In this document: positions 25,847-30,621 of the stretch, piece after piece
How positions within the stretch are numbered: the stretch's first letter is position 1
Layout: every line of letters starts with the position of its first letter
NCBI GenBank assembly: GCA_021537435.1
Contig: GCA_021537435.1_3050.1
DNA length: 64,000 bases
From: a phage
Strand: one strand, 5' to 3'
Made by a program: the position numbers and the translations under genes
The notes under the pieces: generated by a model
The model's input: only the letters and a program-made list of their open reading frames with translations
Told to the model about the DNA's origin: nothing
Database searches by the model: none

Positions 25847-25850
25847 CAAT

Positions 25851-25868
25851 GGGGACCTTTCGGTCCCC
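25851..25868. terminator. bidirectional terminator after gene 54
   Basis: GGGGACC-tttc-GGTCCCC followed by ATATTTTTATTT. Confidence 0.8.
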
Positions 25869-25874
25869 ATATTT

Positions 25875-26165
25875 TTATTTACGGAATGAAATGAAAGCAG
25901 AAACTGAAGCAACTAAACTGTCTTCAATATAAACTTCAATTTTTACCGGAGCTTCTGACTCGAATTTACCTGTTACTACACCTTGGAAAATACTTTCAGT
26001 TTGTTCTGGCTTTGAAAAATTTTCAGAAGGAAAAATTCCGAACTTTTTATCTGTTCCAAAAATTTTGATAAATTCATCATAAACTGCTTCATTAAAAGCA
26101 TTATCAGCAGGAATAACGCCTTCAACTACAAGTTCTTGACCTAAAAAGCGCAAAGAAGATTTCAT
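25875..26165 (-). CDS. hypothetical protein (alt-proximal small ORF)
   Basis: 96-aa ORF between gene 54 and the Alt-like genes. Confidence 0.55.
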   Translation of the reverse strand: MKSSLRFLGQELVVEGVIPADNAFNEAVYDEFIKIFGTDKKFGIFPSENFSKPEQTESIFQGVVTGKFESEAPVKIEVYIEDSLVASVSAFISFRK

Positions 26166-26225
26166 TTTGTGTTCCTCATGTTATGTCAGTAAGATTACTA
26201 TAACACAACACGAGGGACTTGTAAA

Positions 26226-28283
26226 CTACATTTTGAACTTTTTAGACATTCCGTTGATGTTAACCAAAGAAGCTAAGATTTGAGAAACTTCGTTTTCCTC
26301 TTCTTTTGATTCTTCTACAAGGAATTGATTAAATCCAGCCATTGGACGAACTTCACCAGTTTCCATCAAATGATCGCCATCATATACTGATTCTTCTAAT
26401 TGCTCAGAAGGAGGAACGATTGTACCTTCGATTAGATACTTGTTATAAGCAGTTTCTTTCATAAAGTACGTACTTACTTTATTAATCTTCAGTAAAATTC
26501 CACGCGGTAGAATAACTTCAGCTTCTGATGGAAATCCTGATAAATGACCTGGAACGATAACTTTGATTCGCTCAGCTCCTTTAATTACCATACCCACGCT
26601 AGTTTCAGCATCTTCATTGGCATATGTAGAATGACTACCCATATGCATTAAATCTTCTGCATCAACGGAACCTTCTCCTTCGCCAGAAAATACTGCGCCG
26701 GAATCATCTAGAGCCATATAGTTTTTACCATGCTCACCGAAGATATTTGGTTTAAGTGATGTCGATACGAAGTTCTTGAAATAGAACATTTTGTTTTCAA
26801 TGTTATGACGCAAAGTTTTAAAGGTAACTTCTTGTCCACGGTAAAGTGTAGTTCCTGGAGGAAGAACTGATCCTTTGGCAAAGGCAGAATCTAACGTCTC
26901 GATGTGCTTAATAGCTCTTTCCATGTATTCTTCACGGGTAGAATCTGGTTTACCCAAAAGGAACGAGTTCATTTCAACATATGAATCTGCACAATAATCT
27001 TCAATTACATCAGATTCAGCCTGAGTCAGTCCTTTTGGAGTTACTTCGGTGCTTGCGTATTCATATGCCTGAGCAGCAGATTCATTAATCAATTTATAAA
27101 TGCCATTCATTACAAATTGAATAATAGCTGTCTTTTCATCTGATGTAGCTTTAGAACCTTTAACTAAATCATTGATAATTTTCTTAATAACATCAAAGCT
27201 ATTAGAAATATTAATGTCAGCAAGATCGCTTAAAATTTTATCAGTTTTATAATCAAAGAATTCTTTATTCTTTAAATATTCTTGAGAACCTTGATATGTT
27301 ATATCGCTCTGCAGCTTGATAGATGGATCGCGTAAACGTGCATGGGCTAATGCAATATGATTTCGGAAACTTTCTAGTTCATAATCATTAGATTTAAAAC
27401 GAGAAGCACTTCTCATACCACCGATAGCTCCTTTGCTGAAGTTTGAACCAATCTGGATAACGCCAGAGTTCATTGGTCCTTCTGCTTTATATACCGGAAC
27501 TTTAGATTCAAACTCTTGATATTTCTTGGCAGCGAAGCTATCACCCTGAAGTGAAGCATCAACAGTAGAATATTGAGCTTGTGCTGCTAATCGACGACTA
27601 ATTTTAGTTTTCTGAATAACAGCTTGATCAGTGCGCTTATCATTTTCCAAAGCAATAGAAGCAGCAACTGCGACAGCTTTAGGAACAGCATTACCTGTTT
27701 TAACGTCTACATAAACATCACCAACCTTTGATTCAACTTTTGTGAATAACTCAGTTGAAATAGGAGGTACACCTGGAATGTCTTCTAAATTGGCATTTTT
27801 ACGGTAAACCATAATATATGCATATTTCTTATCATAGTCCCAGATTTCCTTTAAAAGAACATATCGACCTGCTCCTTTAGTACGTACTAAACGGTCAGCA
27901 ATAACTTGCATTTGACGAGCAGCGCCATTTGTTTTACTTTTTAGTACGCGGAATAGGCATGCATCAATTTTATACTGTTTCATTGTTTGAAGAGCAGTAT
28001 CAAAAACCGCATTAATGACACCAATTGGATTTCCACCCAAGTTTTTAAGCTTAACTAACGATAATTTCTCATTAACACCTATCATTACGATATGCATCAT
28101 TTTGTCGCCTGGCTTAACGTTTTTATTCGTATCACCGCCAGAGGTGTATGTACAAAATCGAAATCCAGGAAGAACGCTTTCTTCACCGGCTTGAATAGCA
28201 AAAATTTGAGGTATTTTATGCTTAGGATTTAAGTTAACAACCGGCGCCGAAGCGCCGTCAAATAATTCTGTAATAAGTTCCAT
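26226..28283 (-). CDS. alt: Alt-like ADP-ribosyltransferase, paralog A (685 aa)
   Basis: N-terminus MELITELFD (capsid-targeting, gp21 site LITE); C-terminal ART signatures YxxxxYxEMN, YRGQ, FVSTSL, SEAEVILPRG. Confidence 0.85.
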   Translation of the reverse strand: MELITELFDGASAPVVNLNPKHKIPQIFAIQAGEESVLPGFRFCTYTSGGDTNKNVKPGDKMMHIVMIGVNEKLSLVKLKNLGGNPIGVINAVFDTALQTMKQYKIDACLFRVLKSKTNGAARQMQVIADRLVRTKGAGRYVLLKEIWDYDKKYAYIMVYRKNANLEDIPGVPPISTELFTKVESKVGDVYVDVKTGNAVPKAVAVAASIALENDKRTDQAVIQKTKISRRLAAQAQYSTVDASLQGDSFAAKKYQEFESKVPVYKAEGPMNSGVIQIGSNFSKGAIGGMRSASRFKSNDYELESFRNHIALAHARLRDPSIKLQSDITYQGSQEYLKNKEFFDYKTDKILSDLADINISNSFDVIKKIINDLVKGSKATSDEKTAIIQFVMNGIYKLINESAAQAYEYASTEVTPKGLTQAESDVIEDYCADSYVEMNSFLLGKPDSTREEYMERAIKHIETLDSAFAKGSVLPPGTTLYRGQEVTFKTLRHNIENKMFYFKNFVSTSLKPNIFGEHGKNYMALDDSGAVFSGEGEGSVDAEDLMHMGSHSTYANEDAETSVGMVIKGAERIKVIVPGHLSGFPSEAEVILPRGILLKINKVSTYFMKETAYNKYLIEGTIVPPSEQLEESVYDGDHLMETGEVRPMAGFNQFLVEESKEEENEVSQILASLVNINGMSKKFKM

Positions 28284-28286
28284 GAT

Positions 28287-30383
28287 TTATCCTTGAACGA
28301 ACTTGTAAGGCATGTTTGTAATATCTATGCAAGACGCAATAATTCCAAGAGATGATTCTACTTTCTGTTTAACATTTGATGAAACAAATGATGCAAAGTC
28401 AACTCTGTCTTCTATTTCAATATCACCTGTCATTGCAACCAATTCACCAGTTTCCATTAAATGGTCTCCGTCATAGATTACCGATTCGGTGAGCTCTTCC
28501 GTGGTCATAACTTCAGCTTGAATGAGTTTTGTATTATTAGATGTTGTTCCGTCATTATTAGAAGCATCAGTTATTTTATTAACTTTGACCATCAATCCAC
28601 GCGGTAGAATAACTTCAGCTTCTGTTGCTATTCCGAGACTTCCTGGATATACAACATTAACTTTATGAGCTCCATCAATTGCCCATCCTATTTGAACTTT
28701 AACGTATTCAGGATTTTCTTTATACGCTCTTATTTCGTTTGGATTAATAGTTATTCCTTCTTCATTTTTATCAACTGTTAATTCATTGCGAGCTTCTGGT
28801 TCTAAAAGACCAATACCAGCATGTGTGATTCCAAAACGTCCAAAAATGATAGGAGTTAAAGAAGTAGATACAAAATTTCTGAAGTAGAACACTTTATTTT
28901 TAACTAACGCTTCATATATAGGAGCAGTCATACTTTGAGCACGATAAACTGTAATGCCTTCTGGTATACGGTCACCATTTTCAAAAGCTGAATCTAAGTT
29001 ATTTATAGCAGATTCAATTTCTTTTTCACTCATTACATCATATCGTTCTGGATTGTAACGACCTAAAAGAAGATTATTGATGTCAGTATATCCTGAACCG
29101 CAATATTCTCTAATGCCACGCTTTTGTGATGGAGTATATTTAGAACCATCGCGGGCAATAGTAATATCAATCATTGGACCAGCACCAATTCCAGAAAAAC
29201 TGTAAATCATTCGTTTGAGGAATTTAGTTTTTGCTGCGTTCCAGGAATTTTTAGTTATTTCTTCCCAGACTTCATCTGGTTGTCCTTTACGATTTTTATT
29301 ATGATTAGCAAGCCATTTATCTTTATAATCTTCAAAGAATTGATTTACAGCTGCTGCGTATTTCTCTAAACATTTTATTGAAGTAGTTGGTTCATTTTTA
29401 ATTGCATTAAAAATTACTTCTTTAATTTTTTCTGAAACTTCACCGACTTGACTCATTGGAAAGAATTTATAATCATAGTGAAGTTCATCTGCCGTTCCTT
29501 CAGCAATAATTTTTGCTGCCTTTGTTTTAGAAGCTAATGAATTAATTCCAATTTTCATTTCTTCTGCTTCGGGAATTAAAGGTGCAGTAGCTGGTTTATT
29601 AAAATTAGCTGCTGTAGATTCATACTTCTGGAATAATTCACTTTCAAATCTAGAAGATTCCAATGACTGACTTTGTGCAATTGCTCTACGGGAAATTTTA
29701 ACTTTAACGATTACGGCTTGGTCAGAACGTTTATCATTTTCTTGTGCAATAGATGCAGCAATTGCCTCATTTTTGGTTACTTGAGCTCCAGTATCTTTAT
29801 TGATATAAACATCACCGACCTTCGATTCAACTTTAGTAAAGAGCTCGGTGCTAATTTCTGGAACTCCTGGAATGTCTTCTAGTGATACATTTTTACGATG
29901 TATAAGAATATATGCATACTTTTTATCGTAATCCCAGAGTTCCTTAAGAAGGACGTATCTGCCACCTGAACGACTGCGGATGAGTCTATCAGCAATAAGT
30001 TGAATTTGTCGAGCTTGACCGGCGGTTTTAGACTTAAGAATACGAAGCATGCAGGCATCAATTTTATATTGACGCATTGTTTGCATTGCAACAGTAAAAA
30101 CTGAATTGATATAATTAATTGGGCTTGGACCAAGACCTTTTAATTTAGCAATTGAACCTTTAGCAGTTAATGTAAAAGGAACAATATGCATCATTTTGTC
30201 GCCCATTTTTAAATCGCGATTAGTATCACCTCCAGATGTATAGGTACATAAACGAAAGCCTGGTTGTTCAATTGCATCATCAACATGAACTGAAAAAATT
30301 TGTGGTATTTTCTTCTTTGGATTTAAGTTTGTAATCGGAAGAGTAGTATCTTCGTCAAATAATTCTGTAATGAGTTCCATCAT
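28287..30383 (-). CDS. Alt-like ADP-ribosyltransferase, paralog B (698 aa)
   Basis: N-terminus MMELITELFD; ART signatures YxxxGYTDINN, YRAQ, FVSTSL, TEAEVILPRG; first ~230 aa and last ~80 aa strongly similar to paralog A, middle divergent. Confidence 0.85.
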   Translation of the reverse strand: MMELITELFDEDTTLPITNLNPKKKIPQIFSVHVDDAIEQPGFRLCTYTSGGDTNRDLKMGDKMMHIVPFTLTAKGSIAKLKGLGPSPINYINSVFTVAMQTMRQYKIDACMLRILKSKTAGQARQIQLIADRLIRSRSGGRYVLLKELWDYDKKYAYILIHRKNVSLEDIPGVPEISTELFTKVESKVGDVYINKDTGAQVTKNEAIAASIAQENDKRSDQAVIVKVKISRRAIAQSQSLESSRFESELFQKYESTAANFNKPATAPLIPEAEEMKIGINSLASKTKAAKIIAEGTADELHYDYKFFPMSQVGEVSEKIKEVIFNAIKNEPTTSIKCLEKYAAAVNQFFEDYKDKWLANHNKNRKGQPDEVWEEITKNSWNAAKTKFLKRMIYSFSGIGAGPMIDITIARDGSKYTPSQKRGIREYCGSGYTDINNLLLGRYNPERYDVMSEKEIESAINNLDSAFENGDRIPEGITVYRAQSMTAPIYEALVKNKVFYFRNFVSTSLTPIIFGRFGITHAGIGLLEPEARNELTVDKNEEGITINPNEIRAYKENPEYVKVQIGWAIDGAHKVNVVYPGSLGIATEAEVILPRGLMVKVNKITDASNNDGTTSNNTKLIQAEVMTTEELTESVIYDGDHLMETGELVAMTGDIEIEDRVDFASFVSSNVKQKVESSLGIIASCIDITNMPYKFVQG

Positions 30384-30416
30384 ATCCTCTCTAGTGTTTA
30401 TTCTATTTATAAAATT

Positions 30417-30434
30417 AAAGGCCCGAAGGCCTTT
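30417..30434 (-). terminator. hairpin between the ligase-proximal small ORF and Alt paralog B
   Basis: AAAGGCC-cgaa-GGCCTTT. Confidence 0.55.
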
Positions 30435-30621
30435 AATAATCTATTGGTAATAGAGTACGATATATTTCAAACTTTGGACCTTTTTCATAAGCATCAAAAG
30501 TTTCTGTGAATTTATTATAAGCATATGCATCTATAAATTCAATCATGATTTGCGATACAGAAGTAGAAACATCTCCACCTTCTTTTTGAGCCACGACAAT
30601 TGTTTCTAAGTAAGCTTTCAT
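30433..30621 (-). CDS. hypothetical small protein
   Basis: 62-aa ORF; start overlaps the ligase stop by 4 nt. Confidence 0.5.
   Translation of the reverse strand: MKAYLETIVVAQKEGGDVSTSVSQIMIEFIDAYAYNKFTETFDAYEKGPKFEIYRTLLPIDY

Follow-up and report, generated by a model that had tools for sequence, protein, structure and literature searches.

Do close relatives of phage T4 inject one Alt enzyme into the host cell, or two? Alt is a textbook case of an enzyme injected together with the phage DNA, and all experiments on it were done with T4, a phage that carries one copy. We analyzed a 64,000-nucleotide (nt) stretch of phage DNA (GenBank assembly GCA_021537435.1, contig GCA_021537435.1_3050.1; referred to as the window) in which alt is followed directly by a second, related gene. 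An earlier note on this DNA had read the two genes as intact tandem ADP-ribosyltransferases (ARTs) that share a packaging and processing module and recognize different targets. The results presented below make it likely that both genes encode functional Alt ARTs which would be expressed late, packaged, trimmed by the prohead protease gp21 and injected, probably to act on different targets; that their effector part is exchangeable; and that T4 has lost the lineage to which the second gene belongs. We refer to alt and its orthologs as lineage A, and to the second paralog and its orthologs as lineage B.

The gene content of the locus was already known, because RefSeq lists the two under the name 'Alt-like RNA polymerase ADP-ribosyltransferase' (RB14, RB51, wV7 and many others), the IME08 record names such a pair alta and altb, and alt duplications in T4-like phages as well as the alt.-1/alt.-2 remnants of T4 were described by Nolan et al. 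in 2006 (PMC1524935). The window genes are ordinary members of this known, annotated family and their classification is unchanged. What we add are modest refinements over the annotation, namely the mechanism of the T4 deletion, the gp21 sites in lineage B and the boundaries of the exchanged cassette; no published statement was found on the deletion mechanism, on conservation of the gp21 sites in lineage B or on cassette boundaries.

Two paralogs with the same four-part build

The window DNA is that of a Tequatrovirus nearest to RB14, with 98.4% identity across the locus. The genes are arranged in the order gp48, gp54, alt.-3, second paralog, alt, alt.1 and gp30 (ligase), and the locus order between gene 30 and gene 54 is common to the window, T4, RB14, T2, T6 and JS10. 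The two adjacent minus-strand open reading frames (ORFs), of 685 and 698 codons, lie exactly where the earlier note had placed them (Table 1), and the 3 nt that separate them read 'atc'. As it had also claimed, MELITELFD stands at the start of both proteins, the 698-aa ORF carrying one extra Met upstream. The second ATG is favored as the start of alt because its spacing to the GAGG Shine-Dalgarno sequence is 5 nt, as opposed to 2 nt for the first. The resulting 697-aa product is the one annotated in RB14, and the ATGATG start is also present in T4.

The two proteins align from end to end (BLASTP E value 6e-159, 41% identity). Identity is 66-67% in the N-terminal region (aa 1-238) and 13-19% in a helical middle region (about aa 239-420) that is essentially unalignable; it is 33% in the ART domain, where homology is clear, and 35% in the last ~70 aa, which have a single conserved block, SV(I)YDGDHLMETGE. 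To call the first ~230 aa and the C-terminal ~80 aa near-identical, as had been done, was therefore an overstatement; values of that order (99% N-terminal and 94% C-terminal) are those between the window Alt and T4 Alt, not between the paralogs. The central ~350 aa that had been called clearly different comprise both this unalignable middle and the homologous ART domain.

Each protein consists of four parts in the same arrangement. The first is a 6-residue N-terminal propeptide with [I/L]-x-E at its end. It is followed by an alpha/beta N-module of ~230 aa that is specific to the Alt family, by an effector part consisting of the helical middle region and the ART domain, and by a disordered C-terminal propeptide of 54-65 aa that starts right after an L-x-E↓SV site. 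The modular reading of the earlier note, with shared packaging and processing ends around a different effector part, agrees with all features that could be examined, including the retained gp21 sites, and is strengthened by cassette breakpoints near codons 249 and 621 (see below); a different target and packaging of the second protein are probable. The reading needs amending in two respects: the divergence includes the catalytic domain, and the shared C-terminal region belongs for the most part to a propeptide and is absent from the mature enzyme.

An AlphaFold (AF2) model of the second paralog, of moderate confidence (pLDDT 74), consists of an alpha/beta N-module (~12-225), an all-helical middle (~230-415) and an ART fold (~420-625), with disorder at aa 1-11 and 629-672; the predicted propeptides coincide with these low-confidence disordered parts. 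Phrog_802 matches the protein over residues 1-685 (E value 1e-256). PF26846, which the precomputed annotation assigns to all full-length homologs, maps to the N-module, as a fragment starting at residue 62 carries it and a fragment starting at residue 158 does not. An exhaustive profile search with the N-module gave just 74 clusters, nearly all of them Alt-sized and combining N-module and ART, and we therefore rejected the idea that the N-module is a general carrier of diverse cargo. Four matches have no Pfam ART domain, three of which still show degenerate ART motifs by eye. The exception is P0184, a metagenomic protein of 541 aa, which matches the Alt N-module in its first ~160 residues and has a C-terminal part without recognizable ART motif, Pfam match or PHROG match; it is possibly a non-ART cargo on an Alt chassis. 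P0187 (1,142 aa) combines the N-module and ART-like motifs with a ~650-aa extension.

Both proteins carry an R-S-E active site

Against PF03496 (ADPrib_exo_Tox; gathering cut-off 23.4 bits), alt scores 129.9 bits and the second paralog 72.0 bits. All the signatures quoted in the earlier note are present (YCADSYVEMN/YCGSGYTDIN, YRG/YRA, FVSTSL and EAEVILPRG). The catalytic residues are R480, S505-T-S507 and E587-A-E589 in alt, and R482, S507-T-S509 and E587-A-E589 in the second paralog, whose ARTT loop contains F584-x-x-E587. In an alignment of 20 homologs R482, S507/S509 and E587/E589 (numbering of the second paralog) are invariant. Mutation E577A in T4 Alt (the published numbering counts the extra Met) abolishes activity (PMC11404850); this residue is the second Glu of E-x-E and is conserved in alt and in the second paralog.

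Searches of PDB sequences and of NCBIfam with the second paralog gave no match. The top Foldseek matches of its model were Vis, Certhrax, C3, CDTa, VIP2 and iota (E values 4e-7 to 2e-4, TM score on target ~0.6). The sequence evidence indicates that both proteins are paralogous mono-ARTs of the R-S-E (C3/VIP2-like) clade, family PF03496. The identification as two Alt paralogs stood up to scrutiny: the second ORF is not a characterized protein with a non-ART function, and the positions of its catalytic motifs match the Alt active site in the alignment. The C3, VIP2, iota, CDTa and Vis toxins agree with them in catalytic fold and in the R, S-T-S and E-x-E motifs, at an identity of 15-20%; whereas these bacterial toxins are secreted, or binary with other delivery domains, the Alt paralogs would use the phage head. 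The E-x-E type of C3-like ARTs prefers arginine. An N-terminal MuF head-protein domain, which marks MuF-fused Alt/VIP2 ARTs (PMC9503650), was looked for and not found.

ModA and ModB are short early proteins of about 200 aa. Unlike both Alt paralogs they lack an N-module and propeptides, stay out of the phage head and are encoded at another locus. They are ARTs of the R-S-E clade encoded in the same phage group (PMC5512222).

The second gene was lost in T4 and is intact in most relatives

The earlier note had left undecided whether T4 carries both genes intact or one of them in fragments. This can now be settled: alt is intact in T4 and the second gene is present as the fragments alt.-1 and alt.-2. 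Between alt and alt.-3, reference T4 has solely alt.-1 (61 aa; NP_049810, phrog_23015) and alt.-2 (67 aa; NP_049809, phrog_15247). Both align to the N-terminus of the window second paralog, not to Alt, in agreement with PHROGs, and at the DNA level they are 96% identical to the first 348 nt of the window second gene. T4 has two lesions relative to that gene. The first, a frameshift near codon 55, is due to the loss of 1 nt from an A-run. The second is a deletion of about 1.7 kb, each end of which falls in a copy of the 9-bp direct repeat CTAAAAAGT. The last residues of T4 alt.-2 (CSLQVPRVVL, followed by a stop) are what the window gives when the DNA after the stop codon is read in a different frame, on into the early promoter that precedes alt.-3. 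Together these features strongly indicate that T4 lost lineage B by a frameshift and a ~1.7-kb deletion mediated by the 9-bp repeat, leaving alt.-1 and alt.-2 behind.

The T4 record (NC_000866, L001 5066-5451) carries the remark 'old duplication of the first part of gene alt', and the T6 record (MH550421, L011 4302-6359) the remark 'apparent insertion in alt.-2'. Both have the direction reversed, because the T4 lineage once had a full-length paralog and lost most of it. A total of 402 phage records contain the segment that T4 lacks, at 94-99% identity, and 91 records contain the T4-type junction, including natural isolates (e.g. HY03, SG1, vB_EcoM_112, RB55 and RB59). T2 and T6 carry the intact pair. 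The intact tandem pair, probably the ancestral form of the locus, is the usual one in most relatives, laboratory T4 being the exception. Since the junction occurs in independent environmental isolates, the loss is a natural lineage trait and not a T4D/T4B laboratory artefact. In some phages, for example phiC600P9, an alt allele of the T4 type sits beside an undamaged second paralog.

The second gene is under purifying selection

Selection was estimated from eight genomes (synonymous divergence, dS, of 0.21 across the set), in all of which the ORF has 2,058 nt. The ORF is intact in these eight genomes as well as in T2 and T6. The ratio of nonsynonymous to synonymous substitution rates (dN/dS) is 0.039 for the whole gene. 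By region it is lowest in the N-module (0.006), the most constrained part, and highest in the helical middle (0.087), the least constrained one, with 0.029 for the ART domain and 0.027 for the C-terminal part. The second gene is under strong purifying selection; it is maintained and not decaying, and these ratios together with its conservation led us to reject a pseudogene reading of the ORF.

The same results bear on the idea that the second ORF is a duplicate in decay, or without catalytic function, that is kept solely as a structural filler of the core. The T4 copy is indeed a pseudogene, and some GenBank records label the product 'hypothetical protein'. The ART domain itself is constrained, however, and its catalytic R, S-T-S and E-x-E are invariant; besides the 402 records with the intact segment, the protein cluster at 90% identity has 772 members of 685 aa. 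A dead duplicate is disfavored and, in our judgment, very improbable.

Predicted late expression, gp21 processing and packaging

The 3-nt gap between the genes has no promoter and AAGGA is a plausible ribosome-binding site of the second paralog, which points to late co-expression of the second gene with alt. The T4 late-promoter sequence TATAAATA located before alt probably drives both genes. A second exact copy of TATAAATA is found at 29000-29007 (minus strand), inside the alt coding region near codon 458, on the upstream side of the second paralog. The SA20RB annotation has a late promoter at this site; both extra transcription of the second gene and chance occurrence are possible. In the whole window TATAAATA is observed 19 times, against 8.7 expected.

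T4 Alt is a protein of the prohead core that is present in about 40 copies and is ejected with the DNA (PMC9026906). According to mass spectrometry, gp21 cuts it after ITE-6 and LTE-619, so that 63 C-terminal residues are lost and a product of 68.2 kDa remains (PMC5694885); our site mapping reproduces this mature mass exactly. At the aligned positions the window Alt contains ITE6↓LF and ELTE632↓SV, and the second paralog ITE6↓LF and QLEE631↓SV. The A and B proteins of Dhakavirus have LNE↓VF at the first position and LQE↓SV or LSE↓SV at the second. The motifs are thus kept as [IL]xE in 11 of 11 A and B proteins from two genera, and E6 and E631 (numbering of the second paralog) are invariant in the 20-homolog alignment.

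By homology to T4 Alt, we propose that both genes would be transcribed late from the promoter before alt, that the conserved ends would place both proteins in the prohead core, and that gp21 would trim them at both termini, to a predicted 70.1 kDa (alt) and 69.1 kDa (second paralog). Both would then be ejected with the DNA and, in the first moments of infection, would modify arginines of host proteins by ADP-ribosylation. The targets of T4 Alt are RNA polymerase alpha (Arg265) and other host proteins (PMC5512222, PMC9503650). For the second protein, we infer packaging, cleavage, injection and activity from this homology.

Another way to read the second paralog is as an active ART that is not packaged and acts late in the cytoplasm of the producing cell, like ModA/ModB. 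In the literature that could be searched, neither virion proteomics nor activity data turned up for this protein, the N-modules of the paralogs differ at a third of their positions, and its C-propeptide has just 35% identity to that of Alt. A cytoplasmic enzyme, however, would need neither gp21 motifs nor a constrained N-module nor late co-orientation with alt. Both motifs are found at exactly the aligned positions in two genera, with E6 and E631 invariant; the N-module is the most constrained region of the gene; and the gene is co-oriented with alt, 3 nt after it and behind its late promoter. We regard an unpackaged enzyme as unlikely and favor a packaged one.

Ancient divergence and exchange of the effector part

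Dhakavirus carries the same tandem pair. Identity between the window second paralog and Dhakavirus altB is 42% in the middle region, 51% in the ART domain and 59-65% in the C-propeptide, and that between the window alt and Dhakavirus altA is 67% in the middle region, 93-95% in the ART domain and 49% in the C-terminal part. In the middle, ART and C-terminal regions similarity follows the paralog lineage irrespective of genus, and the duplication therefore predates the Tequatrovirus/Dhakavirus split. The N-module groups by genome instead, with 67% and 63% identity within a genome versus 41-46% between genera. Thus Dhakavirus altb (IME08 YP_003734338; JS10 YP_002922542), the ortholog of the second paralog in the same tandem position and also with an aromatic residue at ARTT position -3, has an N-module nearer to that of altA from its own genome (63%) than to that of its Tequatrovirus ortholog (45%); it has S-A-S, not S-T-S. 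Recent gene conversion was rejected as the cause of the within-genome likeness, given saturated dS (1.4-1.6) and a longest exact shared run of 29 nt, located in the E-x-E region. The likeness may go back to an older conversion event or to N-modules that evolved in step with the head core of their own phage.

Position -3 from the first catalytic Glu of the ARTT loop is occupied by F in Tequatrovirus lineage B and by Y in Dhakavirus lineage B, like in the aromatic-x-x-E-x-E toxins; in lineage A it is Ile, and Pro in the T4 alt allele. The ARTT loop contributes to substrate choice in C3-like ARTs, and we used this as a lead only. As the effector parts are anciently diverged and the ARTT loops differ, the two enzymes probably hit different host targets.

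The two proteins might instead be redundant, modifying the same targets (e.g. Arg265 of RNA polymerase alpha) and being kept for dosage or as a backup against inhibitors of host or phage origin. They do have the same Arg-type E-x-E motif and overall architecture, and T4 survives without the second copy. Redundant copies would be expected to be homogenized, or to be lost in more than 91 of ~500 records; yet the lineages have been distinct since before the split of the genera, with saturated synonymous sites and no homogenization of the effector part. The low identities of the ART domains (33%) and middle regions (13-19%), and the systematic difference between lineages at ARTT -3, also speak against redundancy, which we consider unlikely.

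T4 Alt (NP_049811) is the ortholog of the window alt, with the same locus, gp21 sites, R/STS/ExE residues and late promoter. N-module and C-propeptide are those with 99% and 94% aa identity mentioned above; the effector cassette, in contrast, has 32-34% identity in the middle region and 60-63% in the ART domain. The window alt has the cassette of T2 and T6, which is also that of Dhakavirus altA, with 93-95% identity in the ART domain. The second paralog has the whole architecture in common with T4 Alt at 41-43% identity and belongs to a separate, older lineage.

Sliding nucleotide identity between the window alt and T4 alt is 91-100% over codons 1-248, 39-69% over codons 249-621 and 95-99% over codons 622-697. 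Compared with JS10 altA the values for these three segments are 39-72%, 60-95% and 49-76%, with 83-95% from codon 399 within the cassette. In agreement with this pattern, the N-module has a dS of 0.18 relative to T4 alt and the C-terminal part one of 0.05, as opposed to 1.2-1.3 in the middle and ART regions; relative to JS10 altA, dS is 0.50 in the ART domain and >2 in both flanks. The exchanged unit thus coincides exactly with what lies between the N-module and the C-terminal gp21 site, and it behaves as a cassette swapped between phages and between genera. The breakpoints near codons 249 and 621 therefore fit the prediction of a chassis plus an effector: N-module and C-propeptide would remain with the phage lineage, and the effector part would be the unit of exchange.

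Weight of the evidence and implications

Several points weigh against two injected enzymes with different targets. A literature search for functional or proteomic work on the second Alt gave just the 2006 comparative-genomics mention (PMC1524935) and annotation names, and the searchable literature yielded neither proteomic nor biochemical studies of it. The six N-terminal residues of T4 Alt, which the earlier note had taken as the capsid-targeting sequence, may not be sufficient as such a signal in T4. A distinct target is suggested solely by sequence divergence and the ARTT loop. Finally, since T4 and 90 other records thrive without it, lineage B is dispensable in at least some conditions.

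A bolder proposal is that lineage B ('AltB') is another injected effector, directed at a separate host target and possibly serving counter-defence, that went unstudied for 50 years only because T4 had deleted it, and that a lineage-specific head-delivery chassis combines with swapping of effectors in an arms race. We put this forward tentatively and would give it somewhat less than an even chance.

Two anciently diverged Alt versions are encoded by most close relatives of T4, among them T2, T6, the RB phages and many therapeutic and BASEL-collection isolates, and statements on the injected proteins of T-even phages may for this reason be incomplete. T4 versus T2 or T6 is a simple comparative design for the targets of the second enzyme, and the cassette boundaries suggest where a foreign effector could sit in Alt for head packaging.

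Features of the locus and neighboring genes

Table 1. Positions in the window of the two alt paralogs, their parts and their signals.
Feature	Position	Strand	Remarks
alt (lineage A)	28287..30380	-	697 aa from second ATG; PF03496 E value 1e-37
alt ORF with extra upstream Met	28287-30383	-	698 aa
Second Alt paralog (lineage B; ortholog of RB14 'alt.-2', IME08 'altb')	26226..28283	-	685 aa; PF03496 E value 5e-20
N-module of paralog 2, aa 1-238	27570..28283	-	6-aa propeptide MELITE, then alpha/beta domain (PF26846)
All-helical middle of paralog 2, aa 239-415	27039..27569	-	13-19% identity to Alt; no family match
ART domain of paralog 2, aa 416-631	26391..27038	-	Ends at predicted gp21 site L629-E-E631↓S632
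Predicted 54-aa C-terminal propeptide of paralog 2, aa 632-685, plus stop	26226..26390	-	Disordered in model
C-terminal propeptide of alt, aa 633-697, after ELTE632↓SV, plus stop	28287..28484	-	Predicted
Apparent exchangeable effector cassette of alt, codons ~249-621	28518..29636	-	From sliding nucleotide identity
Left copy of 9-bp direct repeat CTAAAAAGT	27936..27944	-	One breakpoint of T4 deletion
Right copy of 9-bp direct repeat CTAAAAAGT	26237..26245	-	Other breakpoint of T4 deletion
GAGG Shine-Dalgarno of alt	30386..30389	-	5 nt to second ATG (30380), just 2 nt to first
T4 late-promoter consensus TATAAATA	30404..30411	-	~20 nt upstream of alt; late promoter at equivalent site in SA20RB annotation
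GC-rich hairpin aaaggccttcgggccttt after alt.1	30417..30434	-	Terminator at equivalent site in SA20RB annotation

The hairpin aaaggccttcgggccttt would divide an upstream early/middle unit from the late unit of alt. The gene before it, alt.1 (30433-30621, minus strand, 62 aa), is a full-length match to PF24647, 'Phage blade protein' (E value 7.5e-29), and overlaps the stop of the ligase gene by 4 nt.

Directly downstream of the second paralog lies alt.-3 (25875-26165, minus strand, 96 aa; DUF5498/PF17602, phrog_1739). It has an early-type promoter of its own at 26197-26225 (minus strand; GTTTAC-17 nt-TATAGT) and would therefore form a transcription unit apart from the late alt genes. Mutants of T4 Alt.-3 with a C-terminal extension escape the CmdTAC defence system (PMC11618068). 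The many mentions of 'alt' in the CmdTAC paper refer to this neighbor and not to the ARTs.

Between the convergent genes gp54 (plus strand) and alt.-3 (minus strand), a perfect GC-rich hairpin with a 9-bp stem (ATGGGGACC TTTC GGTCCCCAT) is present at 25849-25870. It scores as a terminator on the plus strand, with the T-rich tail ATTTTTATTT, and is listed on the minus strand without a T-rich tail; in SA20RB, terminators are annotated on both strands at the equivalent site.

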